Shown: positions 24,513 through 61,449 of the stretch, piece by piece
Numbering within the stretch: the stretch's first letter is position 1
How the letters are laid out: every line of letters begins with the position of its first letter
Source: a virus
Virus record (IMG/VR): IMGVR_UViG_3300047476_000972
Span: 1-64,000 of that record
Direction: 5' to 3' (one strand)
DNA: 64,000 nucleotides
Translations under genes and position numbers: made by a program
Notes under the pieces: model-generated
Seen by the model: only the letters and a program-made list of their open reading frames with translations
Told to the model about the DNA's origin: nothing
Database searches by the model: none

Positions 24513-27206
24513 ATGGGAATTAGACGTAGACGTAAAAAGCTGACCAGCCTCATATCCAATATGGATAAAAGGATCAGAACTGTAGAGTTTAAGAAGACAG
24601 CCTATGGAGTCACCAGCACCACGGAAGAAGTCTCTTCTAATGAAGAAGTTGGCGGTAACGAACCAGCCGGCTCTGTATACTCTCCTACCCTACCGAACCC
24701 ATGGACTCGAGTACAACGAGCCTACTTCCACCCATCAAACGTAGTAGCTGGAGATAGGTTTGAGGTCCTGATGTACAATACCAACGGTATTGAGTCAGTA
24801 TCAGGGTCTTCCGCTGAGAAGGGGGACTTTGTATCTATCTCTGCGCTAGGTAGATCTGCAGCTCCGATTGTTACCGTTGGCAGAACATACTTCAAAAATA
24901 CTAACCCTAGTAATCCCTACTACACATGTCGCGCTCACGGAACTCCAAGTTGGTCGCTGAGCTCCACTAATACACGCGAAAGCCTAAAATTTAATGGTAA
25001 TCAGGTATACGTGCCATTGCCAATCTCTGGAGATGTTTTTGGCACCGTTACCCATACATACCTGTTCTCGCATGGAAGCAGTATTACGGCAAATGGTCCT
25101 AGATACTCTCTAGCAACTAGAGCGTTGATTGCTTCGCACTCAGCTACAACAACTACTGCCACCCTAACCATCTCGGGAACTTCGCACCACTACACAGCTG
25201 ATGACATTATTGATGTCAATGATCTTCCTGAAGCATATCGAGGCGTAGATGGCTTGTTTAAGGTGAAGTCTGTAACTTCCACTACCATCAGCTACGATTT
25301 TGATACTCCTCTATCGGCAGCTATTTCGTCTGCTACTGCTAGTTCGGGTACATATATTTATTCAGTTGCACAGAAATATGTCCGAGTTGGATCAACTTGG
25401 TTTGATACTGCAAATAAAGATAAGGTCTATTATTGGAATGGGCTGAGGTACCAAAGTAGCCAAGTAGAGGGGTTGACAAATGACGGTTCTGCACCAAGCC
25501 CGCCTACAAACCTTACTTTAGTTACAAGTGGGTATAACCGAGGTACCGACGGCGGTGCTAGGTCTAGGGTTGATCTATCTTGGACTGCGCCAACAACATC
25601 TGCTAATGGTAATACTTTAGATGATTTACTCGGATATAAAATTAGGATAAGCGAGACTGGCTACAGCAACTGGCGTGACACTAGAGATTTAAATGGACGA
25701 GACACTTCTGAAACAATAACTGGCTTAGATCCAAATAAGCAATATTACTTCCGAGTAACCGCCTATGATTCATTTGGGAACGAATCTACTGGACTTGACG
25801 GGACAATTGTTACTGGATTGGCCGCACTTAGCGTCGAAAAACCGTCGGCCCCTACAATTCCTACACCTAGGCTTGGAGTAGTTTTAGTTAGCTGGGATGG
25901 GAAAGACTATAACGGCGCTACAGTTCCTTTAGAGCTAATCAACTTTTTAGAGGTGCATGGATCAACTACTAGCGGATTTACCCCTAGCTCTAGCACCTTG
26001 CTAGCAAAAATTTATTCTAAAAACGCCCCCGCTGCAATTTCCAATCTTACCTACAACGCAACTTACTACTTTAAACTTGTTGCAGTCGATAAAAATGGCA
26101 ATTCTAGTGATCCTTCCACTCAAACATCGGCCATAATTAAGCCCCTAGTTGATACTGACGTTATCGGTAAGGTTTTGAATGGAGCAAACATTGTAGACGG
26201 CTCTATTACTGCATCCGATTCAATTATTGGTAATACTATTACTGGCGGACTAATTCAGGCTCTTGCCATCAACGCTGGGCATATCGAGTCAAATAGCATC
26301 ACCACAGACCGACTACAAGCCGGAACAATGACTGGCTTTACTATTCAAACATCCACCGGAAACACCGCAGTTATTCTAAGTGCGGCCGATAACAGTCTCT
26401 CCGTAAAAGTTAACGGAACTGTAGCAGCGTATTTAACCGGAACATACGACAGCACGTGGGGATATGGCGCTATGTTTGGGCTAGGGACCATCGGAGATCC
26501 ATACAGTAGCAACGTGTTTTTCGAGGCGGATGCCTCCATTATTAGAGGTCCAAATAACGTAGCGGGGCTGGCTGCTTGGAGAAGTGGCGGTGGATATCTT
26601 GATCTCTGGGCCAACACTCAAATGAACCTAAGCGCCAGCTACATAACCATGGGCGATGCTCTTTCCGATTTAATAGATATTCAAGGCGCGGTAGTCATTA
26701 ATGGTACCACTGGTCTATATGTTCAAAATCGAATTGATGCATATGGACGTATTGCAGCTCCTTCTTTTGCAATATGGGGCGTCGGTACTGTGATCACCGG
26801 AACTGGTGGTGTAGCACCTATCTCTGGTACCACAACCTCGGCCGCGAACGTTCGTCAACCAACCAGCGGTGACTCCCTGCTGAGGTTTGTTTCCTCTAGT
26901 GGTAGATATAAAAACACTGTCGTGGATATAGATTCTGTTGAAGAGCTAAACCCTAAGCTTTTATTAGACTTGCCTGTACGTGCTTTTAAGTACAATACTG
27001 ACTACTTAAGTAATCCTGAAGACTCTAGGTACGATAGTCTAGTCCCTGGTTTTATTGCTGAAGAAGTAGAGCAGTTCTACGGAGCCGCGGTAGACTATAA
27101 TGAAGACAATGTTCCAGAAAACTGGAATGAAAAGATGATGGTGCCTAGCATGCTAGCACTTATTCAAGACCTATATAGACAAATTGACGAACTGAAGCAA
27201 AGGTAA
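24513..27206 (+). CDS. Tail tip / central fibre with FN3 domains and C-terminal intramolecular chaperone (peptidase S74-like)
   Basis: FN3 signatures (LSWTAP...GYKI...ITGLDPNKQYYFRVTAYD); C-terminal SSGRYKNTV...LPVRAFKY...GFIAEEV plus coiled coil. Confidence 0.8.
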   Translation: MGIRRRRKKLTSLISNMDKRIRTVEFKKTAYGVTSTTEEVSSNEEVGGNEPAGSVYSPTLPNPWTRVQRAYFHPSNVVAGDRFEVLMYNTNGIESVSGSSAEKGDFVSISALGRSAAPIVTVGRTYFKNTNPSNPYYTCRAHGTPSWSLSSTNTRESLKFNGNQVYVPLPISGDVFGTVTHTYLFSHGSSITANGPRYSLATRALIASHSATTTTATLTISGTSHHYTADDIIDVNDLPEAYRGVDGLFKVKSVTSTTISYDFDTPLSAAISSATASSGTYIYSVAQKYVRVGSTWFDTANKDKVYYWNGLRYQSSQVEGLTNDGSAPSPPTNLTLVTSGYNRGTDGGARSRVDLSWTAPTTSANGNTLDDLLGYKIRISETGYSNWRDTRDLNGRDTSETITGLDPNKQYYFRVTAYDSFGNESTGLDGTIVTGLAALSVEKPSAPTIPTPRLGVVLVSWDGKDYNGATVPLELINFLEVHGSTTSGFTPSSSTLLAKIYSKNAPAAISNLTYNATYYFKLVAVDKNGNSSDPSTQTSAIIKPLVDTDVIGKVLNGANIVDGSITASDSIIGNTITGGLIQALAINAGHIESNSITTDRLQAGTMTGFTIQTSTGNTAVILSAADNSLSVKVNGTVAAYLTGTYDSTWGYGAMFGLGTIGDPYSSNVFFEADASIIRGPNNVAGLAAWRSGGGYLDLWANTQMNLSASYITMGDALSDLIDIQGAVVINGTTGLYVQNRIDAYGRIAAPSFAIWGVGTVITGTGGVAPISGTTTSAANVRQPTSGDSLLRFVSSSGRYKNTVVDIDSVEELNPKLLLDLPVRAFKYNTDYLSNPEDSRYDSLVPGFIAEEVEQFYGAAVDYNEDNVPENWNEKMMVPSMLALIQDLYRQIDELKQR

Positions 27207-27209
27207 GTA

Positions 27210-27365
27210 ATGGAAAATCAGGTTGACATAAACTCAGTTATCAATGAGTTTAAGGCTATTATTGCCGATCAAGCTCAGGTTATCGCAATTTTACGAGCAA
27301 CCGTTATATCACTACAATCTAATGCGAATCCGTCTTCATCTACACCCTCATCGGATGGTCAATAA
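27210..27365 (+). CDS. Small coiled-coil hypothetical protein (51 aa, MENQVDINSVINEFKAIIADQAQVIAILRA...), below ORF-track cutoff
   Basis: ATG 27210 to TAA 27363-27365; fills the gap between flanking genes. Confidence 0.65.
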   Translation: MENQVDINSVINEFKAIIADQAQVIAILRATVISLQSNANPSSSTPSSDGQ

Positions 27366-27836
27366 ATGTTAGAAGTGCGAGATGGGGCTAGAACCCTTCA
27401 GTTTAGTGGCTCGCTTTTAGGGAAATCTACATCTAAACGTGGCGACTCAATTAGATGGATTGAATTCGAGCTATATAGGACTGACAGCGGTTCCTACATA
27501 CTGTCACGTATTGGCGTTTCTTTAGTATTCCATGGAGCAGCTTGCGCCTTAGTTAAGCGCTACGGATTAAGTGAAATAGCTTTTGACAAGTTAAATAAAA
27601 AAGCAATTCCATGCCCGGAATGCGATCCATCCGAAGAAGCCGAGCTAGTATTTCCTGAAAAGTATCGTCACTGGGCTCAAGTCTCGGAAGAGCCTGGAGC
27701 CGTGCTAGATGCGTTATATAAGTACGATGACAACGGCGCACGCTACCTAACAAATGTCGCTCAAAGGTTGCTTGAAGAAGCGTCTAAGAACGATGACCTA
27801 ATTGCGGACATTTATAAAATAGAGATAATTCCCTAA
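27366..27836 (+). CDS. Hypothetical protein with H..AC / CPEC putative metal-binding motif
   Basis: 156-aa ORF abutting the previous stop codon. Confidence 0.65.
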   Translation: MLEVRDGARTLQFSGSLLGKSTSKRGDSIRWIEFELYRTDSGSYILSRIGVSLVFHGAACALVKRYGLSEIAFDKLNKKAIPCPECDPSEEAELVFPEKYRHWAQVSEEPGAVLDALYKYDDNGARYLTNVAQRLLEEASKNDDLIADIYKIEIIP

Positions 27837-27842
27837 CAAGAC

Positions 27843-27870
27843 ACCCTAGTTGCAAAGACTAGGGTTTTTT
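27843..27870 (+). terminator. Rho-independent terminator ending the structural operon
   Basis: ACCCTAGT-TGCAAAG-ACTAGGGT followed by TTTTT. Confidence 0.7.
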
Positions 27871-27878
27871 GCTAATAT
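27850..27878 (+). promoter_or_regulatory. Sigma70/SigA-type promoter for the DNA polymerase operon
   Basis: TTGCAA (27850-27855), 17 bp, TAATAT (27873-27878) with extended TG. Confidence 0.6.
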
Positions 27879-27903
27879 AAATTTCTTATCGAAAAGGATT
27901 TAT

Positions 27904-29721
27904 ATGGCAGGACTAGAAGGCATTCAGCTAGAGCTGGTAGATAGTGCCGAACAAGCATCTAAGTTTATTACTTGGCTTGGTGAGAGGCGTCCACTAAATG
28001 CCATTGCCATTGATACCGAGACCGGGGAGCTTCCGGGAAATCCGCGTGACCACGCTCTATCACCTTGGCATGGACGCCTGCGCCTAGCTCAGGTGGGTGA
28101 TGGCATGACTGGCTGGGCTATTCCTTGGGACGAGTGGGGTGGTGTTTTCTACGAGGCCATGGGTAAATTCGATGGGCCTATTGTCTGCCACAACATTGCT
28201 TTCGAGGCTAAGTGGTTTGAGATCCAATCTCGCTGGAGCATGCCTTGGCACCGATCACATGACACGATGATCATGGCGCAGCTAATTGATCCGCTTGGCC
28301 AAGGCGGTCTAAAGCCCCTCACTGAACGTTATGTTGATCGCCACGCAGCGTATCTACAGACTCAGTTGGATGTGGGGCTAGCTGCTAATGGTTGGACTTG
28401 GGGTACTGTTCCAACTACCTTTGCACCTTACTGGTCTTATGGCGCACTAGACACGATTCTCACGATGCGACTTTTTGAGCAATTCTGGGAGAAGTGTGCT
28501 CCAGGTCGTCCATACTCTCAGGCCTACGAGCTAGAGATGAATACTCGCCGTATCGTGACCCGCATGGAGCTTAACGGTGCTCGCCTAGATCTGGATTACT
28601 CGCAGAAGAAGTTTAATGACTTGCTTCAATACACCGAGCAAGTGAAAGACTGGGTTCAGAAAACATACAACGCTTCAGTCACGAGTAATCCTCAGATGGC
28701 GCGCGTATTCGAGGAGCAACTCGGATCTCAGATTACCGAGACCACCCCTAGTGGGCAGAAGTCATTGACCAAGGACCAGCTCAAGCTATTCACTATCCAC
28801 GGCTCTGAAGAAGTTAAGCAGCTTGCAGACACGATGTTGAAGCAACGTAAAGCTGACAAGCTCGCAAACACTTACTTCCTAAACTTCATTAACGACAACG
28901 TAAACGGATTTGTTCACCCGTCCGTAAAGACCATGGGTGCTCGTACTGGACGCATGTCTATCCAGAACCCTGCGCTACAGACTCTTCCAAAAGGTGATGA
29001 CACCGTACGTCGTGCGTTCTTGCCTAAGGACGATGATCACGTAATTATTACGTCCGACCTTGATCAGGTAGAGTTCCGTATGTTTTCTTCCCTGTCTGGT
29101 GATGAAAACCTTATCAATCTATTCAATATGGCAGATGCTACTGGCTCTGACCCATTTACCGAGATCGGACGTGAAATCTACGCTGACCCGACCATGCAAA
29201 AGTCTGATAAGCGCCGTGGCCTAATTAAGGGTGTGGTTTATGGTCGCCTATATGGTGCTGGCGTCTCAAAGCAAGCCCTGACTGCGGGAGTGCCTGAAGA
29301 ACAGATGCGTGCCGTATCTAACGCTTTCGATGATCGTTTCCCTGGAATGTCACTATTCCAGAAGAAAGTAGAAGATATTGGAATGCGTCGCTTGCGAGCA
29401 GAGGGCCAAGGTTATGTAAATACTTGGACTGGGCGTCGCTTACCTTGCGATGAAGACCGCGTCTACACTTTGGTTAATTATCTAATTCAAGGAGGAGCGG
29501 CCGAGGTATTCAAGTCGAACTTGATTAAGTTGGATCAAGCTGACTTGACTGAACTTTTGATCGTCCCTGTGCATGACGAAATTGTAGTAAATGCCCCTCG
29601 AAAAGAGGCGGAAGAAATTAAACAGTTGGTTCGTAAATGTATGACAACCACTGAAGGCTGGGCTGTCCCCCTAACAGCTGATGCCGATGGCCCACTAGAG
29701 ACTTGGGGAGATAAATACTAA
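27904..29721 (+). CDS. polA: Family A DNA polymerase (3'-5' exonuclease + polymerase)
   Basis: Exo motifs IDTET, HNIAFE, YGALD; pol motifs RTGRMS..NP.LQ, DLDQVEFR, KGVVYGRLYG, NYLIQG, VHDEIV. ATG 27904 has an AAAGGA SD (ORF track starts at TTG 27850). Confidence 0.95.
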   Translation: MAGLEGIQLELVDSAEQASKFITWLGERRPLNAIAIDTETGELPGNPRDHALSPWHGRLRLAQVGDGMTGWAIPWDEWGGVFYEAMGKFDGPIVCHNIAFEAKWFEIQSRWSMPWHRSHDTMIMAQLIDPLGQGGLKPLTERYVDRHAAYLQTQLDVGLAANGWTWGTVPTTFAPYWSYGALDTILTMRLFEQFWEKCAPGRPYSQAYELEMNTRRIVTRMELNGARLDLDYSQKKFNDLLQYTEQVKDWVQKTYNASVTSNPQMARVFEEQLGSQITETTPSGQKSLTKDQLKLFTIHGSEEVKQLADTMLKQRKADKLANTYFLNFINDNVNGFVHPSVKTMGARTGRMSIQNPALQTLPKGDDTVRRAFLPKDDDHVIITSDLDQVEFRMFSSLSGDENLINLFNMADATGSDPFTEIGREIYADPTMQKSDKRRGLIKGVVYGRLYGAGVSKQALTAGVPEEQMRAVSNAFDDRFPGMSLFQKKVEDIGMRRLRAEGQGYVNTWTGRRLPCDEDRVYTLVNYLIQGGAAEVFKSNLIKLDQADLTELLIVPVHDEIVVNAPRKEAEEIKQLVRKCMTTTEGWAVPLTADADGPLETWGDKY

Positions 29722-47100: not shown

Positions 47101-50695
<3,595 letters not shown>

Positions 50696-50696
<1 letters not shown>

Positions 50697-51114: not shown

Positions 51115-51714
51115 CTAGTTGGTTAGCTTTTTAATCCAGAATGCTGGGGCCATATACTTTACCCCTGCTAGTACAGGAATGGACTCGTGGTAGTACGGAG
51201 CTACTGAGGGAAAGATCACTACACTACCAGCTTCTGGCTTAATCCTCACCCCGAACTCTGTAAAGTTAAGCTCTCCACCCTCCACGTCATCATTTAGATA
51301 TAAAACTGCAGACATTAGTGGCTCTATAGCAGGGTCTCCGTAGTAGTCCACGTGGGGTCCCATAGCTGAGCCTGTAGCATATTTTGAAATACTAAGAGGC
51401 AGTGGGTCTTTGTACTCGATGTAATTTTTACGGGCATAGTCTTGTCCGACTTTTGTTAGTGCATCTTTTATCGTACTATAGACTGCCCGAGCAGCCTCGG
51501 AGCTGGTACTTAGCTTGGATTCATCTGTGGACTTCTTTTGGCCAAAAACATACTTTGGCCCCTCTCCCGAGGCTACCCACTCGCTCCATTTTTCAATGGC
51601 ATCATTGTCAGTAAGATCTTCGTCAGATGTTTCGATTAAAGATACTAGGTCGCTAGGGGCGTCTACTACATTTTTATAGTAGTAAATCTTGTCTGCAAAA
51701 ATTTCTGGTTGCAT
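51115..51714 (-). CDS. 2OG-Fe(II) oxygenase, prolyl-4-hydroxylase-like
   Basis: MGPHVD...YLND...GGEL.F...KP.AG...FPS...YYH...G.KY. Start at 51714 via TAATG overlap (ORF track 51741). Confidence 0.9.
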   Translation of the reverse strand: MQPEIFADKIYYYKNVVDAPSDLVSLIETSDEDLTDNDAIEKWSEWVASGEGPKYVFGQKKSTDESKLSTSSEAARAVYSTIKDALTKVGQDYARKNYIEYKDPLPLSISKYATGSAMGPHVDYYGDPAIEPLMSAVLYLNDDVEGGELNFTEFGVRIKPEAGSVVIFPSVAPYYHESIPVLAGVKYMAPAFWIKKLTN

Positions 51715-52448
51715 TAGGCGAACTTGTTGCCCTTTTCCCACTCTACTTTTTGCTCCGCCTGAGCCTTACGGACTTCTCGAATCTCTTCTTCCCAAGCTGC
51801 CTTCTTTTCATCAGAGTAGACTGCGTCAGCGAAGTCCCAGAAGGAAACCATGGTGTAGCGAGTGCCTTTTAAAATTTCTTGAACTCCGTGAATATTCTCT
51901 ACTCCACCTGGGAAACAGATGTATGAATAGGCGCGTGGCTTAAATTCGATATCGTGCTCTGGGAAATACAACTCCCCGCCCTCGTAGTCATCATTCAAGT
52001 ACAGAATCCCGACATACTTATTAATTTCAAATGCATTAGGGTGACCATCAAAGTCGGAGTTGTCCGAGTGCGGGGCCGCGAATCCGCCTACATCCCATTT
52101 CTGAGCGTGGGAAGTATTTGCCACTACTTCGCGATCAAAGACTAGTTCAATAGCTTCTTGAAACTTCTGTCGAAGTAACTCGAAGAATCGTGGTGGTAGA
52201 GAGTACTCTGCCAGTTTAGGATCGTCTGGGTGGATTCCCATTCCAGAAGAGCCATAGAAAGCGATGTCGCCCCACTGGGAAGAGTATGACTCAATGTAAT
52301 CAATGATGCTCTTAGCTGCGTCTGGCGTCACAAAATTAGGAATCTCTATGATTCTGTTCTGCGGAATACCGAGCTCGCCTTTAACAGTAGGCTCGTCTTT
52401 GTAGATGATAAAAGTGTCTTTATCAATAGTTTCAAGATATAGAGACAT
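51714..52448 (-). CDS. 2OG-Fe(II) oxygenase, prolyl-4-hydroxylase-like
   Basis: APHSD...YLNDDYEGGEL...IHGV...GTRYT. Confidence 0.9.
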   Translation of the reverse strand: MSLYLETIDKDTFIIYKDEPTVKGELGIPQNRIIEIPNFVTPDAAKSIIDYIESYSSQWGDIAFYGSSGMGIHPDDPKLAEYSLPPRFFELLRQKFQEAIELVFDREVVANTSHAQKWDVGGFAAPHSDNSDFDGHPNAFEINKYVGILYLNDDYEGGELYFPEHDIEFKPRAYSYICFPGGVENIHGVQEILKGTRYTMVSFWDFADAVYSDEKKAAWEEEIREVRKAQAEQKVEWEKGNKFA

Positions 52449-53221
52449 TAGTGGTCAATACCTTTCAGGTTATAGCGTCCAGAGTTTCGCTCTACGCGTT
52501 CGCGTTCTTTTTCCATTTCGGCCCAGACTTCGTGGCCATATTTTGCTTGACCATCGCGCCACTCCTGAGTGCCTTCGAATTCATATTGCCAGAAAGATCG
52601 TACGAAGTACTTCTGACCAGCGGTAGTTTTATTAACGCCATGGTAGTAAGGAGCTCGAGAAGGGAACACTAGAACGTCTCCCGCCTGAGGCTTGTGCATG
52701 AAGAACTCTACGTCTGTCCCTTCTTCGTTGAGGACCTTAAAACAGATCTCTCCGCCCTCATAGTCTCCATTTAGATACATGGTGCATGTCATAACTGGCT
52801 TGTCTCCGGGAGCGTCTGCGCGCTCCTGTTGAAAGTCTGTGTGATAGAACATGCCCACGTTAGTGTCTGCTCCGCCATCTGTTTTGTACATACAGATAGC
52901 AGGGGCGGTGAATTTCCAGTTGGGAATGCTGTCAGTGAAGTAAGTATCATAATAATGCTTGGTAGCTTCATAAAACGCTTGAAGAATTTTTAAAGCAGGA
53001 TCAGTTAGATCCTTATCACCAGCTAGTAAGGCCTGAGACCACTCTTCTTCATTTGGAAATGACGAAAATGTGTGATTCCTGACCTTAACAGTGGTCAAAT
53101 CTCCGAAAGTGAACCACTGACGCCACTCACTATTGTTCTTGTGGAACTCGATGATCTCTTCTGGGTTTTCATAGAGACCTCGATACACAATCACATTTGG
53201 GTAGAGTTCCAGAACTTCCAT
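52448..53221 (-). CDS. 2OG-Fe(II) oxygenase, prolyl-4-hydroxylase-like
   Basis: FYHTD...YLNGDYEGGEI...YYHGV...GQKY. Start at 53221 via TAATG overlap (ORF track 53233). Confidence 0.9.
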   Translation of the reverse strand: MEVLELYPNVIVYRGLYENPEEIIEFHKNNSEWRQWFTFGDLTTVKVRNHTFSSFPNEEEWSQALLAGDKDLTDPALKILQAFYEATKHYYDTYFTDSIPNWKFTAPAICMYKTDGGADTNVGMFYHTDFQQERADAPGDKPVMTCTMYLNGDYEGGEICFKVLNEEGTDVEFFMHKPQAGDVLVFPSRAPYYHGVNKTTAGQKYFVRSFWQYEFEGTQEWRDGQAKYGHEVWAEMEKERERVERNSGRYNLKGIDH

Positions 53222-53904
53222 TAGATACCGCACTGGCTTTCATGAGAAAGAATAGTCCAGAAGAATGGCACTGTGTAACGGATTCCAGACGTAATCTGAG
53301 TTACGCCGTGAATATACTCCATATCGCCTGGGAAGAAGTAGGCAGCTCCAGCCTTTGGCTTGAATTGGATTCCCTGATTAGGAAAGTACAACTCCCCGCC
53401 TTCATAGTCATCATTGATGTAGAAAAGACCAGCAATGTCGTAGTACGGGAAGTCGTTTGGCTTTCCGCGATCTTCTCCCTCGTGCAACTCTTTATCTGCG
53501 TGAGGCATCTGTAGCTGGCCTGGCAACCAACGAACTAGTGCTGGAGATGTAGGAACCGCATCTACTTTAAAGAACGCGTCTACTTCTCTCTTTAGTCGTT
53601 CAACCATTCCGTTGATAACTTCTGGAATCTTAGGGTCTACGGCACGAATAGTGTCATAGGTAGCTACTCGATCTTTCCAATACTCCGAGTCATAAATGAC
53701 AGTGCCCTCTTCGTTATAGTGGGTTTCTGTGACATCCCATGAGGTGTTTGATCGGATAAACGCATTGAGAGTCTGTAGCTCCTCGGGCGTCATAAAATCT
53801 TCTCTGGCCTGAATGTTGGAAGGGCTGTTTCCAAAGAATCCAGAAGGTGTTATGGACATTCTGTTTTCTAGCCTAGAGTTTGAGTAGTCTTCTAAAGGTT
53901 CCAT
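53221..53904 (-). CDS. 2OG-Fe(II) oxygenase, prolyl-4-hydroxylase-like
   Basis: MPHAD...YINDDYEGGEL...YIHGV...GIRYT. Confidence 0.9.
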   Translation of the reverse strand: MEPLEDYSNSRLENRMSITPSGFFGNSPSNIQAREDFMTPEELQTLNAFIRSNTSWDVTETHYNEEGTVIYDSEYWKDRVATYDTIRAVDPKIPEVINGMVERLKREVDAFFKVDAVPTSPALVRWLPGQLQMPHADKELHEGEDRGKPNDFPYYDIAGLFYINDDYEGGELYFPNQGIQFKPKAGAAYFFPGDMEYIHGVTQITSGIRYTVPFFWTILSHESQCGI

Positions 53905-53916
53905 GCATCTATCCTA

Positions 53917-54648
53917 TCATTCATAAACTCTTCGAGTCCAAACTTCCTTCTGGTAGACTCCCCCGTCTGGAACACGATACTTCTTGCTATTAGCGTTGTT
54001 GTCCATGGCCATTTTCATGTATGGGACCTTAGCATCAACTTCCGATTCCCAGTCCTCGCGCTTGAAGGGCAACATCTGAGCGTAAGGAGTACCTGCTGGC
54101 AGAACTCCAGTCCAACCTTTAACAATAAAAAATGGCATAGTCCCTGGAAGATTGACTTTGTCGTTGTCAATGATCCCGCTTGTTGTTAAAAATGGTAGCT
54201 CAAAGCGGTTAAATGGTTGAGTGTATAAGACGCTATACCCGTCTGGTACCTGCACTGCCCAGTCCGACCACCATGCAAAATGAACTTCATGATACCCCAT
54301 CGGGGCTTTGAACTGAGGCATCGGCGGCCTGTTTTGAATGAAATCTTTATTTTGAGGATCTAATACTTTGGCTTTAATTACGCCATTGTCTTCATAGAAC
54401 TCGATGTCACAAGGGGTGCGGTAGACATATCCGGTGCCCATGATGTCAAAAACAGCAGGGCAAGCCTTCCACGTTGGAATTTTTCCTCCGACATAAGGAT
54501 CTTTCCAGTGTTCGCCATCTGGCTTGAGAGCAAAACGATCAGCTTTGCGATACCATTCAGGAATTGTCTTGATGGTCGGCTTTGGGGTTGACGGACTGTC
54601 TTCCGTTAGCCATGGGCGATTTTTGATGAATTTAATCAGTTGTTTCAA
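53917..54648 (-). CDS. DUF6065-like / dUTPase-like beta-fold hypothetical protein
   Basis: P.P....IPEWY...TWKACP...D.M..GY...P.GYS.L...P.NR...SGIID.D...AGTP.AQ..PFKR..W. Confidence 0.55.
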   Translation of the reverse strand: MKQLIKFIKNRPWLTEDSPSTPKPTIKTIPEWYRKADRFALKPDGEHWKDPYVGGKIPTWKACPAVFDIMGTGYVYRTPCDIEFYEDNGVIKAKVLDPQNKDFIQNRPPMPQFKAPMGYHEVHFAWWSDWAVQVPDGYSVLYTQPFNRFELPFLTTSGIIDNDKVNLPGTMPFFIVKGWTGVLPAGTPYAQMLPFKREDWESEVDAKVPYMKMAMDNNANSKKYRVPDGGVYQKEVWTRRVYE

Positions 54649-55366
54649 TTGTCATTCCTGTCACTGGGCATTTAATGGTTTTAAGTTTGATGTTCTTAGA
54701 TTCATGTTGCCCCATAGAGGAGCCGTCATAGTTGACTGCATCACGATACATCTTTGACCAATCGCCTTTAGAGTTTTTTGCTTCGGCAGCTTCGCCATAC
54801 TTTCTCAGCTCTTCCCAGTATTCGTTTGGAAGACTGCCCTCTGTTATCTCCATCTGATAGCTCGACTGCAGATCGCCAATTGATATGGGGATCACAGCTG
54901 CTACGGGAGTGCCAGCGGGGATAAAGATTTCTTTGTTTGGCTCTGTAATTTTTATAGCAAGTGGCAGCTCGCCCTTATAAAAAGAGGTGCTTAGGATAGT
55001 GGTAAATGTCTGAGTCCCTCTAATAAATTGGTTCGGCACTGGCATTGTCAGCATTGATACGTCGACGTCAGTTGAAAAAACTAGCCCAGTCTTAAAACTA
55101 AGCGTACCGTGAGCCCTACCAGTGTAGACAAACTCTTCGCCCTCTAGAATTTTGACGTGGTGTTCTTCAGAGTTTTCTACGCCATCCCAGATCGCTCGGA
55201 CATCTTTATTAAAGGAAATACCCCAGCCGAGACCATTAGTCAGTGTCATAGGAAAGCACATATACGCGTGCTTCCCTGAAGTATTGTCCATCCAGTCTCG
55301 GGTAGCACGTAGCTGCTCGATGGTCGCAGCTTTTTCGTGTAACCTTTGTACTCGGATAGTTTTCAT
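54632..55366 (-). CDS. DUF6065-like protein
   Basis: RDWMD.T...HAY.CFP....N.LGW...PVPN...IPAGTPVAAVIPI. Confidence 0.6.
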   Translation of the reverse strand: MKTIRVQRLHEKAATIEQLRATRDWMDNTSGKHAYMCFPMTLTNGLGWGISFNKDVRAIWDGVENSEEHHVKILEGEEFVYTGRAHGTLSFKTGLVFSTDVDVSMLTMPVPNQFIRGTQTFTTILSTSFYKGELPLAIKITEPNKEIFIPAGTPVAAVIPISIGDLQSSYQMEITEGSLPNEYWEELRKYGEAAEAKNSKGDWSKMYRDAVNYDGSSMGQHESKNIKLKTIKCPVTGMTIETTD

Positions 55367-56115
55367 TAGTCGCCTGTCTCGACGATGAACTGGGGGCGGT
55401 GGAACTTTTCTGAATAATCAAGCATGGTAACCATCGAGTGCTTAGTTCCAGATAGAACCGGCATTGCTCGATGAGGGTACATGTAATTAGACGGGAAGAT
55501 GTATAGGTCTCCTGCAGTGGGCTTCACTTTAACATTCTGCAACCTAAAGTACAGCTCTCCACCTTCGTAGTCATCGTTAGGGAAGGCCACTAATGACGTG
55601 ACGCAGTTGTAGGAGAACCCGTGATCATGGTGCTCTTGGAAGTGCTGCCCTGGACCGTACTTAATAAAGTTAGTTGCCTCCCAGTAGCGCAGTTCTCCGA
55701 TGTTGTACATCTTGGTGTAGTGCTTTACCGCTTGGAGCTGTCGGTGATGGGTCTCTTCCCAAAGGGCTACCAGCTTCTGAGCAGCTTCGGAAGGGTCGTG
55801 CTGAATGTCTGTTTTCTTGTACTTAAAGTCAACGCAGTCGCGGTACTCTGGCATTTTTACGCCATAACCAACTAGAGCTTCCTCGTAGTGGTATTGGTTG
55901 CTTGGGTCAAGAAGTACGTCTTCTAACCGCTGAATCACCTGTAGCTCGGTTGGAATTACGTTTCTGTAAACCCAGATGCCAGACATGGGGACGACTTCTT
56001 CCGCGGTAGTCCAAGTCTTTTCTTCAATTTCATACCACTTAGTAAGACGAACATTGTGATCGTTGATGTCTTGCATCATCTTTTCTGTTGGCTTTCCTAC
56101 ATGATTGTTCTGCAT
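55366..56115 (-). CDS. 2OG-Fe(II) oxygenase, prolyl-4-hydroxylase-like
   Basis: FIKYGPGQHFQEHHDHG...NDDYEGGEL...FPSNYMYPH...GTKHS. Confidence 0.9.
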   Translation of the reverse strand: MQNNHVGKPTEKMMQDINDHNVRLTKWYEIEEKTWTTAEEVVPMSGIWVYRNVIPTELQVIQRLEDVLLDPSNQYHYEEALVGYGVKMPEYRDCVDFKYKKTDIQHDPSEAAQKLVALWEETHHRQLQAVKHYTKMYNIGELRYWEATNFIKYGPGQHFQEHHDHGFSYNCVTSLVAFPNDDYEGGELYFRLQNVKVKPTAGDLYIFPSNYMYPHRAMPVLSGTKHSMVTMLDYSEKFHRPQFIVETGD

Positions 56116-56122
56116 GATTGTC

Positions 56123-56866
56123 CTAATACTTCAACTTGTATTCTTGAATAATTGGGGATACCTTGTGGTTCACGTCTCCGCGATCGTTGTAGTCAGTCAT
56201 AATTACAACGGCATATTTTGTTCCAGAGATCATGTCTTGGGAGGCGTGCTCATAGATGTAGGTTGATGGGAAAACAACTACGTCTCCGGCCTTTGGCTTA
56301 ATAGATAGGCCGTTCATTCGAGGGAACCAAATCTCTCCGCCCTCATAGTCGTCGTTTAGATATACAACTACTGAGACAGTGCACACGTAGGTTGGGCCAT
56401 GATCAGCGTGAACCTTAAAGTGAGTTCCTGATCCTTCATACTTTACAAAGTTAAAAGCCTCGTATGAGCAGATCCCCACTCCCCAGTAGCGGCCGTAGTC
56501 ATCCACACACTGGCGAACTGCTTGGAACACGGCTTCGTGTACATCGTAGAGTTCGGCATTGTGCTCGTTACGAGGACCTAGGCCAGTGGAGTTGATTTTA
56601 AAGTCTTGTGCATTTCTCGCATTGACGTCTACGTCAGCAGAAGAAGTAACCTTTGCTCCTTGCCAACGATACCTGCCAGTGCCATCTAAATTTTTTTCTA
56701 GGGTGTCAATGTAGTGCTTACCTTGTTCTTTGGTAATTGCACCACTATAGACGTTTACGCCTAGGGCTGGATTTGCTACGGTAATAGCTGGATTAGTGGT
56801 AGCCTGTCGATCAGGCATACGATGCGCTGAGGTCTCTGACCTGTCTTTAGTAAACCAATCATTCAT
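56123..56866 (-). CDS. 2OG-Fe(II) oxygenase, prolyl-4-hydroxylase-like
   Basis: FVKY...HFKVHADHG...YLNDDYEGGE...FPSTYIYEH...GTKY. Start at 56866 chosen because TATACT lies 6 nt upstream (ORF track 56881). Confidence 0.88.
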   Translation of the reverse strand: MNDWFTKDRSETSAHRMPDRQATTNPAITVANPALGVNVYSGAITKEQGKHYIDTLEKNLDGTGRYRWQGAKVTSSADVDVNARNAQDFKINSTGLGPRNEHNAELYDVHEAVFQAVRQCVDDYGRYWGVGICSYEAFNFVKYEGSGTHFKVHADHGPTYVCTVSVVVYLNDDYEGGEIWFPRMNGLSIKPKAGDVVVFPSTYIYEHASQDMISGTKYAVVIMTDYNDRGDVNHKVSPIIQEYKLKY

Positions 56867-56898
56867 GCATTTAGTATACATACGAATATGTAAAAATG

Positions 56899-57675
56899 CT
56901 AGATTATCGGGACATATCCTTCAAGATTTTTTGGGAAGTCTGCTGGCGGGCAGTAGCACTCTGGGCACCCTATACACTCTTTGTTTTTAGGGGGTAGCCC
57001 CTCAAATGAGATAGGCTTTCCGGTGGCTTCGTAGAACCGTATCTCGGCATCATGCGTATACTCTTTTGCTAATTTCCTAAAAGAGTCTTTGTCAACTGTA
57101 TTGCTGTCTAGGTTGTAGGACCAATCTTCAGGCTTAGAATATATGGCAAAAAAGACGATCATATAATCTTCGTCATTAGTTGATGGATATGGTGGCCTAC
57201 CGTGTATATGCTGTTGGCCATTAAAAAAGACAGCTGAATTTTCTTCTTCGGAGTATACGTGGCCTTCTATTTCTACTCCCCAGTCCGAGATTCCGTGCTT
57301 TACAACGCATAGATCCATCAAATACTGGCTAGAAGTGTCATCTAGATGTCTCCAAAGATATGGGACTATGTCTTCTTGTTTTTGATATCTAGCTGCAAAG
57401 ATAAAGTTTTGTTTTAGATCAGGCTCTCCCCAGCTCTCCCTTGCCAAAGCCAGCAACTCTTCTCCCACAAAATGAGGGATCTCGGGGTTACAAGTCCATC
57501 TCCCTGAGATTGTGTGGTACTTAGCTGAAGAGCCTGGTCCCCACTCTTGAGCCATAAGTACTTCTTTTATGGCATTGAAGCTTTTCTCAGAGAGCAGGTT
57601 GCTCTTCTTAAATGGTTTATACGGGGTAGGCAAAGGCCACTTTATGTTTGGACTGTTGTCTGCATAAAGTGGCAC
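56899..57675 (-). CDS. Divergent 2OG-Fe(II) oxygenase-like protein with C-terminal Cys cluster
   Basis: ARY...LWRHLDD...F.GQ..IHGRP; ends ECIGCPECYC. Confidence 0.6.
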   Translation of the reverse strand: MPLYADNSPNIKWPLPTPYKPFKKSNLLSEKSFNAIKEVLMAQEWGPGSSAKYHTISGRWTCNPEIPHFVGEELLALARESWGEPDLKQNFIFAARYQKQEDIVPYLWRHLDDTSSQYLMDLCVVKHGISDWGVEIEGHVYSEEENSAVFFNGQQHIHGRPPYPSTNDEDYMIVFFAIYSKPEDWSYNLDSNTVDKDSFRKLAKEYTHDAEIRFYEATGKPISFEGLPPKNKECIGCPECYCPPADFPKNLEGYVPII

Positions 57676-57700
57676 TTTGCTACTACCCTATCCCTCTACT

Positions 57701-58516
57701 TTAGAGGATTCGCATGAACCTCGGTGGGAAGAATGGGAATGATGGTGGGAAGAACGGGAAGAACGGGAAGAACGGGAAGTAAGGGAAGAACGGGAAGAAT
57801 GGGAAGTAAGGGAAATATGGTGGGAAGAACGGGAAGAACGGGAAGAACGGGAAGTAAGGGAAGAATGGCGGAAAGAATGGGAAATATGGCGGGAAGAACG
57901 GCGGGGTTGTATTGCTAGTGGAGTAGTCAGACCACGCAGAAGTTCCGTTTGCGTTGGTTACGCGAACTCTATACTGCTGTGAGGTATCTGCCTCTTGAGC
58001 TACGTTTGCAGATGTTCCTGTTGTGTTGCCTGACTTGGAGTCGGTGCTCTCCCAGTAGTATGTGCTGAGGGTTGCACCGCCAGTAGCTGGTGCTGACCAA
58101 GAAACATAGTCTGTCTGATCGCCAGAAAAGTTCTGAACTGTTGGTGCATTTGGAGTGGCAGGAACTGTAGTGATAGTTACAGAGCCAGATTCGGTTGAAA
58201 GTGCAGAAGTTCCAGCAGCATTTGTTGCTGAAACTTTAAAGGTGTATGAAGCAGCTGAATCTAGGCCACCAACAACAATCGGAGAAGATCCGCCGGTTAG
58301 GTTTGTGGCAGTGGTGTCTTCTATTCCGCTTTTATATGCAATTACAGTAAATGAAGTCGCAGAAGGAGAGTCGGCTGGGAGCTCGAAAGAAACGCTAGCC
58401 GCACCGTCATTGAAGGCGCGGTTAGTTCCGACGTTACTACCCGAAACATTTATTGGGGCTTTTGGCTCCAAAAAGTCGTTAGACGCCTGAGACTTTCTAC
58501 CAGCTCTCTTGCTCAT
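57701..58516 (-). CDS. FN3-domain virion-type protein with C-terminal Pro/Phe/Tyr repeat tail
   Basis: Two FN3-like domains (GLDSAASYTFKVSATNAAGTS; VSWSAPATGG...YRVRVTNANGTS), then a 63-aa (P)P[FY]F tract; GGAGAG SD. Confidence 0.85.
   Translation of the reverse strand: MSKRAGRKSQASNDFLEPKAPINVSGSNVGTNRAFNDGAASVSFELPADSPSATSFTVIAYKSGIEDTTATNLTGGSSPIVVGGLDSAASYTFKVSATNAAGTSALSTESGSVTITTVPATPNAPTVQNFSGDQTDYVSWSAPATGGATLSTYYWESTDSKSGNTTGTSANVAQEADTSQQYRVRVTNANGTSAWSDYSTSNTTPPFFPPYFPFFPPFFPYFPFFPFFPFFPPYFPYFPFFPFFPYFPFFPFFPFFPPSFPFFPPRFMRIL
57716..57904 (-). repeat. 9/12-bp coding microrepeat (GGGAAGAAC-type on + strand) encoding 19 (P)PxF units
   Basis: PPFF PPYF PFF PPFF PYF PFF PFF PFF PPYF PYF PFF PFF PYF PFF PFF PFF PPSF PFF PPRF. 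Confidence 0.9.
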
Positions 58517-58530
58517 TTAATTCTCTCCTA

Positions 58531-61449
58531 TTAGGCGGTCAAGTCGCCGTATACCAGCCATGTGTTAGAGGCACGCTTTAATAGTGTAGCAGATGACCAG
58601 CGGGTCCTTAGCTTTAGACCCGGGGTAGCGTTTACAGTAACTCCGACCGCGCCCTCAATTGTGACTTGACCTGTATTGGTCTGAATAATGTCCAGAGTGG
58701 TTCCAACTGGATAGTCCACGGTCGAGTCTGCAGGAATTGTTAGTGTGGTTGCCGAGGTCTTGCTGATCTCTATGATGGTATCACGCTCATTGAGATTAGA
58801 CAGAGTATATGAGTCAGTCTTAGCTGAGATGGTCGTGATAGATGGAACACCTTGCTTAGTCTGAGCTCCGTCAGTGAATGCAACTCCAGATGCTCCTACG
58901 GTGACAGTTCCTGTGAATGTAGGATCTGCAGTCGGGGCCTTGGCGTCAATCTGAGTCTGAATTGCTGAAGTAACACCATTCAAGTACTGAAGTTCTGTGT
59001 TTGACACATCTCCAATAGTTGCCGATTCAGCGGTGAGCGAGTCAACCGCGATCGAAGCTAGAGCGAAGCTAGAGTGGGCAGTGTTGATAAAGACTGATTC
59101 GTCTGGCTCTGGTGTGTAGCCGTCGAAAATCTTAAATACTCCATCACTAGCATCCCTAAACATACCAGCGTGAGCATATCCAGCACCATTTACTGTGTCG
59201 TAACGACCAGCAGCCCAACCTAGGTCAGGGTTGAAGTGGACCTTGCCTCGCGCGGTTCCACCGCTAGTGTAGGTATCGGTTACGGTGCTAGTTACTGTGA
59301 AGGTAGTACTGGTTACAGCCGTAATCTCTAGGCCGTCACCAGAAATGTTGAATGAAGATGGAGTCACGCCTGTTACAGTTACATAGTCTCCGGCCTCGTA
59401 ACCGTGGGCAGCTTGAGTTGTATATACAACTTCGGTACCGCTACCAACAGCATTGGTGATGGTGCTCATGCCCGCTTGGTTGAGGTAGATCATGTTGTCG
59501 CGTAGCTTTAGGTCAGCTGCACTAACGGTTGTAGTAGTTCCTTGAACTACTAGGTTTCCAGTAATGGTTAGACCTGGAATCTCTACTGACCCAGTGAAAG
59601 TTGCCCCAGAAAGCCCAGCCTTTGCATCTAGCTGAGTCTGAATGGCACTAGTCACGCCGTTTACGTAACCAATCTCCGTTGAAGAAACATCGCCAATTGA
59701 GGTAGTCGATGGAAGTGAAATTGTTCCACTGAATGTTGCATCTGCAGTCGGTGCCTTTAGATCCAAAGCACTCTGAGTATCGGTGGAAATTGGCTTGTCC
59801 GCATCGGCGGTGTTGTCTACGTTTCCAAGGCCAACCATGCCCTTAGTAATTCCAGAAACAGTGCCGGTGAAAGTAGGGCTTTCAGTTGGAGCTTTGTCGT
59901 TCAGCTGAGTCTGGATTGCGCTAGTTACGCCATCTACATAGTTTAGTTCTGTAGTAGTGGCAGTAATTCCGTCTAGAGTGTTTAGCTCAGAAGTGGAGGC
60001 TGTGATACCGCTTAGAGTGTTGAGCTCTGAAGTAGACGCCGTGATGCCGTTCAAAGTATTTAGCTCTGAGGTGGTCGCGGTAATTCCGTCTAGAGTGTTA
60101 ATCTCTGCAGCTGTAGCTGTAACGCCATTTAGGATGTTTAGCTCTGCTGTAGTGGAGGTAATTCCGTCCAATACGTTAAGCTCTGCGGCCGAAGCCGTAA
60201 TCCCATCAAGGGTGTTTAGCTCCGCTGTCGTTGCTGTAATACCATCCAAAACATTTAGCTCTGAGCTCGAAACTGTAATACCGCTCAAGGTGTTTAGCTC
60301 AGTAGTTGAGATAACGACTCCATCTAGAACATTTAGTTCAGTGGCGTTAGCTGTAAGACCAGCGATGTTCAAGATGTCGGCTGCAGTTACAGTTCCAATA
60401 GTTGTTGATGATGGTAGCGACACGTTACCAGTAAAGGTAGGACCGTCTAAGTACGCTAGGTTAGCTGTATCAGAAATACCGTGCACCGAAGTAGTGTCAG
60501 AGTTATGGGTAGTAATAGCGGAAGATACGTCAGTTAGATACGCCAAATCTTCAGTATTGGTGATACCGTGAATATTTGTAGATACGTTGTGATCGGTGAT
60601 TGCATTATCAGCGTATGTTTCATATGCAGTCGTTAGGCTTGAGGTCAGGGATGCAATCTCAGATGAGGTTGTTCCTGCGTAGTCAAGAGAAGTCCAGGCT
60701 GTTACACCGTTTCCAATCTTAAACTTGCCAGTATTGCTTTCTAGAGCAAATACGTTTGCCGATACAACTGGGTTTGTGTTAGTCCAGTTAGTAGAAGTAT
60801 TGATCTCTAGAGTGGCTTTAGTGCCAATAGAAGTCGTGATGGTCGAAGCAAAGTTCGGGTCATCACCTAGTGCAGCAGCCAGCTCGTTCAACGTGTTTAG
60901 TGTCGTTGGAGAAGAGTCAATCAGGTTAGCAATTGCAGTGTCAGTGTATGAATTAGCAGCTGATTCTGCTGAGTCTGCCTTTGACTGAGCACCAGTCTGA
61001 GTTTCTAATTCGCTCGTATCTGCGATTCCATGAACGCTTGTAGTGTCTGCGTTGTGGTTATATACAGAGGTGTCTGTGTAATCTTTTACTTCGATTTCTA
61101 AAGCATCCACCTTCGACTGAGCGCCAGTCTGGGTCTCGAGAGCAGATGTGTCAGCGATTCCGTGAACGTTGGTGGTGTCTGAGGCATGGGTTGAAAGATC
61201 GCTAGAGGAGGCCTTTGCATCTAGCTGAGTTTGAATAGCAGAGGTAACACCGTCTAGATAGCCGATCTCGGTATCAGAAACTCCGGTCACTGCACCGACA
61301 TATGGAAGTGACGTCCACGCTGTTGAACCATTACCTACTTTAACCTTGCCAGTATCGGTCTCAAATGCGAGCTCGCCTACGGAAAGAGTAGGGTTAGTAG
61401 AGGTCCAGTTAGCCGCTGTACCGCGACGTATTTGAATTTTAACTGCCAT
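58531..61449 (-). CDS. Long fibre protein with Mtd-N/hyaluronidase-N-like domain and 13-aa repeats
   Basis: IQIRRGTAANWTSTNPTL..GE..ETDTGK.K.GNG...W..L (repeated internally); LNTLNELAAALGDD.NFA; C-terminal ATLLKRASNTWLVYGDL. Confidence 0.8.
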   Translation of the reverse strand: MAVKIQIRRGTAANWTSTNPTLSVGELAFETDTGKVKVGNGSTAWTSLPYVGAVTGVSDTEIGYLDGVTSAIQTQLDAKASSSDLSTHASDTTNVHGIADTSALETQTGAQSKVDALEIEVKDYTDTSVYNHNADTTSVHGIADTSELETQTGAQSKADSAESAANSYTDTAIANLIDSSPTTLNTLNELAAALGDDPNFASTITTSIGTKATLEINTSTNWTNTNPVVSANVFALESNTGKFKIGNGVTAWTSLDYAGTTSSEIASLTSSLTTAYETYADNAITDHNVSTNIHGITNTEDLAYLTDVSSAITTHNSDTTSVHGISDTANLAYLDGPTFTGNVSLPSSTTIGTVTAADILNIAGLTANATELNVLDGVVISTTELNTLSGITVSSSELNVLDGITATTAELNTLDGITASAAELNVLDGITSTTAELNILNGVTATAAEINTLDGITATTSELNTLNGITASTSELNTLSGITASTSELNTLDGITATTTELNYVDGVTSAIQTQLNDKAPTESPTFTGTVSGITKGMVGLGNVDNTADADKPISTDTQSALDLKAPTADATFSGTISLPSTTSIGDVSSTEIGYVNGVTSAIQTQLDAKAGLSGATFTGSVEIPGLTITGNLVVQGTTTTVSAADLKLRDNMIYLNQAGMSTITNAVGSGTEVVYTTQAAHGYEAGDYVTVTGVTPSSFNISGDGLEITAVTSTTFTVTSTVTDTYTSGGTARGKVHFNPDLGWAAGRYDTVNGAGYAHAGMFRDASDGVFKIFDGYTPEPDESVFINTAHSSFALASIAVDSLTAESATIGDVSNTELQYLNGVTSAIQTQIDAKAPTADPTFTGTVTVGASGVAFTDGAQTKQGVPSITTISAKTDSYTLSNLNERDTIIEISKTSATTLTIPADSTVDYPVGTTLDIIQTNTGQVTIEGAVGVTVNATPGLKLRTRWSSATLLKRASNTWLVYGDLTA
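59929..60339 (-). repeat. 11 tandem 39-bp / 13-aa repeats (ELNxLxGITAxxx)
   Basis: ELNVLDG, ELNTLSG, ELNVLDG, ELNTLDG, ELNVLDG, ELNILNG, EINTLDG, ELNTLNG, ELNTLSG, ELNTLDG, ELNYVDG at exact 39-nt spacing. Confidence 0.85.

Follow-up and report, generated by a model that had tools for sequence, protein, structure and literature searches.

A Pro-Phe-repeat protein of a phage tail-fibre block and the adjacent cluster of prolyl-4-hydroxylase-type oxygenases: a candidate substrate beside its candidate enzymes

The window, that is, the whole stretch of 64,000 nucleotides analysed here (positions 1 to 64,000 of IMG/VR record IMGVR_UViG_3300047476_000972), belongs to an uncultured freshwater phage. 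The record is 77.5 kb long and about 45% complete (CheckV). At 51115-58516 the window carries a gene for an FN3 protein with a C-terminal repeat tail made of Pro, Phe and Tyr, followed on the same strand by nine enzyme-like genes: seven oxygenases of the 2-oxoglutarate (2OG) and Fe(II) type, six of them of the prolyl-4-hydroxylase (P4H) type, and two DUF6065-like genes. An earlier note on this DNA, made from the letters alone, had described this arrangement and suggested the tail as the dedicated substrate of the enzymes. In the order of transcription, the features are:

57701-58516, minus strand: FN3 protein, 271 aa, with a (P)PxF-repeat C-terminal tail (one PF00041 match, E 1.7e-6); the candidate substrate
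57716-57904, minus strand: repeat tract of the FN3 protein, residues 205-267 (63 aa), 19 PFF/PYF/PPxF units
56899-57675, minus strand: divergent 2OG-oxygenase-fold protein, 258 aa, with HxD...HxR and a Cys-rich C-terminus (assigned from alignment, model and Foldseek)
56123-56881, minus strand: P4H-type oxygenase ox1, core orthologue (PF13640, E 9e-12)
55366-56115, minus strand: P4H-type oxygenase ox2, core orthologue (PF13640, E 3e-12; orthologues 59-92% identical)
54632-55366, minus strand: DUF6065 protein, 244 aa (PF19541, E 1.4e-27, 97 bits against a cut-off of 26.6)
53917-54648, minus strand: DUF6065-like phrog_7084 protein, 243 aa, with an invariant Cys63 and a predicted dUTPase-like fold (phrog_7084, E 5e-34)
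53221-53904, minus strand: P4H-type oxygenase ox3, core orthologue (PF13640, E 1e-6; orthologues 58-93% identical)
52448-53233, minus strand: P4H-type oxygenase ox4, variable member (PF13640, E 1.2e-8; 35-42% identity beyond the close clade)
51714-52448, minus strand: P4H-type oxygenase ox5, variable member (PF13640, E 3e-8)
51115-51741, minus strand: P4H-type oxygenase ox6, variable member (PF13640, E 5.6e-11)

The nine genes are tightly packed, as had been noted before. The first starts 25 nt past the FN3 gene, and the following junctions (+17, +7, -1, -17, +12, -13, -1 and -28 nt) all lie between +17 and -28 nt. The coordinates and composition of the 63-residue tail with its 19 (P)PxF units are also confirmed. 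The tract consists of 25 Pro, 31 Phe, 5 Tyr, one Ser and one Arg, and glycine is absent. The protein ends in ...PPRFMRIL, with MRIL alone after the repeat. On the DNA level the tract is a 9-nt periodic repeat in which synonymous codons vary. The frame runs on without a break from the FN3 domains, and more than 80 related loci preserve it; the tract is therefore a genuine coding sequence and not an artefact. A plus-strand open reading frame (ORF) at 57724-57918 with a Gly-X-Y-like translation (GRTGRTGSKGRT..., GRTGRTGSK...) was considered and rejected as a collagen: it is the reverse complement of the CCN-TTY-TTY repeat in a block whose genes all lie on the minus strand.

The FN3-tail family contains at least 544 protein clusters, which have in common a basic N-terminus (GRKSQ..NDFLEP, with invariant residues) and the FN3 region. 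The unit of the tract differs by lineage (PFF/PPFF, PPHF, FCP, FGAFG, FSFTPY, FGFTP or FSVFNF), and all of these are aromatic and of low complexity. After the tract, members of the family end with nothing, as in the window, or with an acidic tail, a Cys-rich knot (CxxYCWxCxC...) or, in many members, a domain of about 150 aa. This last ending starts with Cys, in some copies finishes with HN, and matches the Hint/intein families PF13403/PF14890 below threshold (E about 1e-3); examples are P0003, P0012, P0062, P0086, L026:9989-11254 and L045:9989-11134 (P and L are our handles for proteins and loci, G for genomes). The ending suggests a self-cleavage that would activate the C-terminus of the tract. 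No such Hint-type autoprocessing domain is present in the window protein, whose sequence stops at MRIL after the repeat. Between loci with identical FN3 domains the tract differs in length by 19-22 residues (L077 versus L078/L079; L049 versus L050), and in a related population from a lake the window tract is extended by a 36-nt in-frame insert (PFFPPFFPPFFP) at window 57878-57880. Because of these differences, the tract length is taken to change fast by slippage. A search with the tail alone, a low-complexity query, gave at least 595 stretches that match by pattern, two of them confirmed by tblastn.

The six genes ox1 to ox6 match PF13640, the family of P4H-type enzymes, with 30-48 bits against a cut-off of 27 (E 1e-6 to 3e-12). 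They share the HxD...H...K/R arrangement together with a YLNDDYEGGEL motif, in agreement with the six prolyl-hydroxylase-like enzymes read from the sequence before. His158, Asp160 and His212 are invariant in 21 aligned sequences, and Lys or Arg is found at the GxK/RY position of the six window enzymes. For ox1, the nearest solved structure is the Bacillus anthracis P4H (3itq/5hv0, E 1e-5). Orthologues of ox1, and likewise of ox2 and ox3, are present in every tabulated locus with a Pro-Phe tail and at least 9 kb of flank, at 47-98% identity, while ox4-6 are more variable. In addition, ox3 shows a weak Tet_JBP match (E 0.007).

The seventh enzyme, called a divergent oxygenase in the earlier note, has no Pfam or NCBIfam family match. 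HxD...HxR is invariant in the alignment of its family, and a comparison of this family with the oxygenases by hhalign gives a probability of 50% (E 1.6e-4). The AlphaFold model (pLDDT 84.8) has 463 Foldseek matches at E<=1e-3, and all of those listed are 2OG oxygenases; the top ones are SnoN, then the PBCV-1 prolyl hydroxylase (5c5t), and PHD2. Among the seven, the double-stranded beta-helix fold was checked on the model of this divergent member alone. Because its fold matches 2OG oxygenases, the count of seven oxygenases stands. To be noted, a second paralogue of about 200 aa is found in the close relatives L003-L005 and L054 (e.g. L005:11743-12342), and in other lineages a short paralogue lies upstream of the fibre genes, also in genomes without the cluster.

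The two remaining genes had been described as DUF6065-like and enzyme-like. Their relationship holds, as both match phrog_7084 and one matches PF19541, but they are not oxygenase-like. The protein at 53917-54648 has no Pfam match and is tied to DUF6065 solely via phrog_7084. Its model (pLDDT 91.8), which was taken to represent the fold of both proteins, finds the dUTPase/dCTP-deaminase superfamily or dUTPase-related viral proteins in its top 22 VIA matches (Z 9.0-5.9), and Foldseek gives a dUTPase/dCTP-deaminase-like match with E 4e-4. Thus both are predicted to form a dUTPase/dCTP-deaminase-like barrel and not an oxygenase fold. A cysteine is invariant throughout the family. In a reading by eye, an SGIIDxD and an AQ stretch resemble dUTPase motifs III and IV, while no counterpart of motifs I, II and V is recognised, no profile having been run. 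A match of the DUF6065 protein to plant LRR receptor kinases in phmmer (E 6e-9) was rejected, as it comes from periodic I/L-P spacing summed over the LRR repeats. In cultured phages, a tblastn search with the phrog_7084-like protein finds haloarchaeal viruses only, whose relatives sit away from fibres and oxygenases. One of them, gp38 of Halorubrum tailed phage 7 (L087, record 26718-27608), adjoins thymidylate synthase and a family-B DNA polymerase. A nucleotide-related branch of the DUF6065-like family may therefore exist. Our literature search on DUF6065 found no papers.

For the comparison across phages, 80 IMG/VR loci were found via the tail protein and annotated with profiles built from the window's own proteins. 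The co-distribution was counted on those 68 loci that have 4 kb or more of downstream sequence, and the tail class was set by counting PxF units:

Pro-Phe tails (10-52 PxF units): 54 loci, with 3-10 P4H-type genes downstream and 2 DUFs (3 in one locus)
Pro-poor aromatic tails (0-2 PxF units; FGAFG, FSFTPY, FGFTP and FSVFNF types): 14 loci, with 0-2 P4H-type genes downstream and 0-2 DUFs

The P4H-type cluster lies beside the tail gene in 54/54 Pro-Phe loci and in 0/14 Pro-poor loci, with zero mismatches. Co-occurrence and adjacency across phages, independent of collagen genes, had been set beforehand as the test of the tail-enzyme link, and this result is in favour of it. In most of the 80 loci the order is fibres, tail gene, OX OX DUF DUF OX..., with small variations, and the same order is found in two further viral loci and in three short contigs from metagenome-assembled genomes (MAGs). 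In complete genomes that lack the cluster, 4-5 PF13640 genes are scattered elsewhere, and genomes with the cluster have at least 10 PF13640 matches each. Since the scattered genes are kept in cluster-less genomes, it is the adjacent cluster alone that tracks the tail type.

The DUF proteins also differ between the classes. With a single exception, every locus of sufficient flank has the phrog_7084-like gene beside the tail gene, and the DUF6065 protein family occurs in both Pro-Phe and FSFTPY loci. The identity of the tail-adjacent DUFs to those of the window is 54-74% in Pro-Phe loci, closest relatives excluded, and 29-36% in Pro-poor loci, whereas FN3 identity (48-65%) and fibre identity (32-58%) overlap between the two classes. 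In the FSFTPY locus L055:12513-13915 the DUFs are separated by an Asp/Asn beta-hydroxylase-family gene (E 5e-16) and one with weak likeness to sulfotransferases, which take the place of the P4H-type genes, and an FGFTP-type locus carries a short-chain dehydrogenase/reductase (SDR). Thus the enzyme set beside the tail seems to change with the tail chemistry.

The module is not restricted to one phage type. The window major tail protein (13960-15105) and PolA (27850-29721) have homologues only in the close relative G006; none is found in G008 and G011 (Pro-Phe) or in G010 and G001 (Pro-poor), which are phages of about 111-115 kb with the fibre/tail module. A 1232-aa protein is common to G001 and G002 (Pro-poor) and to G008 and G011 (Pro-Phe) with 53-59% identity, and in G008 and G011 it lies just beyond the module. 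From the distribution of these proteins it follows that two or more unrelated backbones carry the module and that both tail states occur on one backbone; the module has evidently moved between unrelated backbones.

The module lies in a minus-strand-only gene run that spans 63540 down to 45137. The block starts with two fibre proteins and one small gene in between, the second fibre being the 972-aa protein. Then follow the FN3 protein, the nine enzyme-like genes, a 120-aa gene, two collagen-like fibres, a beta-propeller protein and two small genes. The fibre features are:

58531-61449, minus strand: fibre protein, 972 aa, with an Mtd_N receptor-binding-fibre N-terminal domain (PF18454, E 2e-17)
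47101-50696, minus strand: two collagen-like fibre genes, 505 and 692 aa (PF01391, E 6e-45 and 9e-41)

A homologue of the 972-aa fibre precedes the tail gene at every related locus with upstream flank. The presence of this Mtd_N fibre directly upstream places the module in the tail-fibre block. In the window collagens Pro is found in the X position only and never in Y, which is occupied by Thr or Gln, as had been pointed out before; they are possible secondary substrates, as candidates only. Across genomes the collagen content is independent of the cluster. In the complete Pro-Phe genomes G008 and G011, whose downstream clusters have 9 and 6 genes, the collagen-like ORFs are all short (78-247 aa), and a similar one of 242-246 aa is found in G001 and G002, which are without the cluster. 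As the cluster follows the Pro-Phe tail and not the collagen content, collagen is the poorer candidate substrate of the two, in line with the weaker fit of the collagens assumed earlier.

Gene content, folds, motifs, adjacency and co-distribution together lead us to propose a substrate, a chemistry and a place in the virion, and we regard this proposal as evenly balanced: the P4H-type battery would hydroxylate the Pro-Phe tail of the fibre-module protein, and the tail would have additional partners in the DUF6065 proteins. The tail protein, with a putative docking N-terminus, the FN3 region and the Pro-Phe polymer tail, would be part of a cassette within the tail-fibre module and be co-produced with the Fe(II)/2OG-dependent oxygenases. 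These would hydroxylate tail prolines in F-P-F and F-P-P-F contexts. The paralogues, being old and separately conserved, probably each take another site or ring position. Hydroxylation would turn a very hydrophobic PFF polymer into a soluble, hydrogen-bonding one, comparable with the assembly of free Hyp-Phe-Phe, which would suit an exposed part of a fibre. The two proteins of predicted dUTPase fold would provide a tailoring step or act as chaperones of the tail. The P4H-type reading is supported by the intact triad and 2OG-binding residue in six enzymes and by the fold of the seventh. Among solved structures the closest relatives are peptidyl-prolyl hydroxylases (B. anthracis P4H; for the seventh enzyme PBCV-1 vCPH and PHD2), a further point in favour of the proposal.

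One of the closest known systems is the tandem dioxygenase array gp41-gp54 of the Synechococcus phage Syn9. It was reported in 2010 from in silico work of Iyer, Abhiman, de Souza and Aravind, who suggested a role in secondary-metabolite synthesis; it includes an unnamed dUTPase-fold protein (PMC2938197). Like the window cluster, the Syn9 array combines several tandem dioxygenases with a dUTPase-fold cysteine protein. Syn9 gp43 matches the window DUF6065-like profile (E 2e-19) and gp54 the window divergent-oxygenase profile (E 3e-11), and the array starts right after the tail-fibre/fibre-assembly genes gp32-gp39. A difference lies in the two tryptophan halogenases and the JmjC/MINA member of Syn9; neither family is found among the genes of the window block scanned against Pfam. 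A Pro-Phe tail gene is not seen in gp35-gp44, whereas the window encodes a candidate protein substrate next door. By these profile matches and its position, the window cluster is a relative of the Syn9 array without halogenases. In the Syn9 record (L086, NC_008296, 36054-36842 and 42602-43144) gp43 is DUF6065-like and gp54, annotated as 'ferrochelatase', belongs to the divergent-oxygenase family; the labels 'DNA endonuclease V' and 'minor coat protein' on several genes of the array look wrong.

As far as the account in PMC7019647 goes, the prolyl 4-hydroxylase of PBCV-1 (A085R, vCPH, 5c5t) takes Pro-rich repeat peptides as substrates (Eriksson et al. 1999). It is the second-best structural match of the divergent-oxygenase model. 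PBCV-1 is a chlorovirus with one such enzyme and no dedicated substrate gene adjacent, whereas the window array lies in a bacteriophage fibre block, with seven enzymes (up to 10 in relatives) beside a Pro-Phe polymer. The B. anthracis P4H (3itq, 5hv0), the best solved match of ox1, is tied to the collagen-like surface fibre BclA; it is a single enzyme with a Gly-X-Y substrate, in contrast to the glycine-free candidate substrate of the window. Plant extensins and mussel foot proteins are Pro-rich aromatic repeats that become functional after hydroxylation of Pro (and Tyr) and then self-assemble or adhere. The likeness here concerns the possible way of working only; these proteins are eukaryotic and secreted and have no sequence relation to the tail.

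Several other explanations were weighed. The oxygenases could act as classical collagen P4Hs on the downstream collagen-like fibres, with the Pro-Phe tail a mere neighbour. The run of genes does include the two collagen genes of 505 and 692 aa, their place after the cluster is retained in the closest relatives L002, L004, L005 and L038, and the enzyme family is collagen-P4H-like. Moreover, P4Hs from bacteria and viruses are less strict about position than those of animals. However, the window collagens have Pro in X only, with Thr or Gln in Y, G008 and G011 keep a full cluster with short collagen-like ORFs only, the cluster-less G001 and G002 are similar in this respect, and loci with Pro-poor tails have similar fibre genes without the cluster; we consider a collagen target unlikely. 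The enzymes could also target other virion, host-envelope or translation proteins, the region after the fibres being a hot spot of accessory genes. In these phages 4-5 PF13640 genes are scattered elsewhere, and cluster members vary from 3 to 10, as in hyperplastic regions. But ox1-3 and both DUFs stay orthologous and in near-constant order beside the tail on different backbones, and the tail-type rule is without exception in 68 loci, which makes such targets quite improbable.

A further possibility is that the array serves the synthesis or tailoring of a small molecule or free peptide, as proposed for Syn9, and has no link to the tail. The relationship to the Syn9 array through gp43 and gp54, and an SDR in some related loci, fit this view. 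However, among the block genes scanned against Pfam no halogenase, nonribosomal peptide synthetase (NRPS), ATP-grasp, protease or exporter/transporter family is found, the presence of the cluster follows the tail type, and the Syn9 array too comes directly after tail-fibre genes, so that we give this explanation a rather low probability. The idea of released peptides in the layout of ribosomally synthesized and post-translationally modified peptides (RiPPs), which had been raised before, is not supported: in place of a short precursor with leader and core there is an FN3 protein of 271 aa, conserved at its N-terminus and encoded in a tail-fibre block, and neither a protease nor an exporter accompanies it in that scan. 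The analogy with antamanide contributes nothing. Lastly, the cluster could modify nucleotides or DNA, as dUTPase-fold proteins stand alongside oxygenases. The dUTPase/dCTP-deaminase-like fold of the DUF6065-like proteins with SGIIDxD resembling motif III, the halovirus homologue beside thymidylate synthase and PolB, and the weak Tet_JBP match of ox3 would speak for it. Nevertheless, the oxygenases are of the P4H-type family and not of TET/JBP or AlkB, by eye the DUFs show no recognisable motifs I, II and V, and the genes lie in the fibre block and track the tail type. This explanation is much less likely than the others and, in our estimate, very improbable.

Several observations weigh against tail hydroxylation itself. 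The best tree of the FN3 domains has three changes of tail type, but a tree with all Pro-poor tails together is not rejected and is marginally better (approximately unbiased (AU) test, p 0.54). The perfect correlation may thus stem from one ancestral switch plus linkage, as neighbouring DNA is co-inherited regardless of joint function. The earlier reading of the tail as the dedicated substrate is thus supported in part. Because the whole fibre block moves together, the transfer between backbones is no separate test of the tail-enzyme link. FSFTPY tails contain 27 prolines and yet are without a P4H-type cluster; if the link is real, sequence context would matter and not the proline content alone. 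Two large collagen genes also adjoin the cluster in the window, and the halovirus context hints at nucleotide chemistry for the DUF6065-like family. Moreover, 7-10 enzymes are more than so simple a repeat would seem to need. In addition, Hyp was never detected in PBCV-1 virions (PMC7019647).

The hydroxylated tail could go further and constitute a viral biomaterial of the poly(Hyp-Phe-Phe) type, forming a self-assembling or adhesive tip of an accessory fibre, possibly decorated, with site-specific paralogues and with DUF6065 as a new tailoring enzyme or chaperone; this would also explain the cyanophage arrays. We regard this extension as doubtful, though more probable than any of the alternatives above. 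To our knowledge, tandem arrays of 2OG oxygenases in phages have been known since at least 2010 and the substrate has been identified for none of them. Our literature searches for Phe-rich or Pro-Phe phage tails with hydroxylases found no account of such a cassette. The cassette offers a concrete candidate substrate for phage oxygenase arrays, namely one 63-residue Pro-Phe tract beside its putative enzymes. If the proposal is true, bacteriophages chemically tailor their own fibre proteins, a role can be assigned to DUF6065 and to several orphan oxygenase families, and a natural route to Hyp-Phe-Phe polymers exists; synthetic Hyp-Phe-Phe tripeptide analogues are studied as stiff, piezoelectric materials. 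Should the enzymes act elsewhere, the strict link to the tail type would still need explaining.

The source phage has a siphovirus-like gene set with a major tail protein, a tape-measure protein, a head-tail adaptor, PolA, a helicase and a primase. Searches of cultured phages gave no matches, either by blastn with the region or by tblastn with the tail protein or the DUF6065 protein. Near-identical contigs from a metatranscriptome library cover parts of ox3, ox4 and the tail gene, although such a library may hold DNA. Three short contigs with the module (L083-L085) are binned into Bacteroidota MAGs (Lishizhenia, Chitinophagaceae and one unclassified), which is a weak host hint at most, or a binning artefact. 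Outside the cluster, another PF13640 oxygenase gene is found at 70964-71200 of G000, beyond the window.

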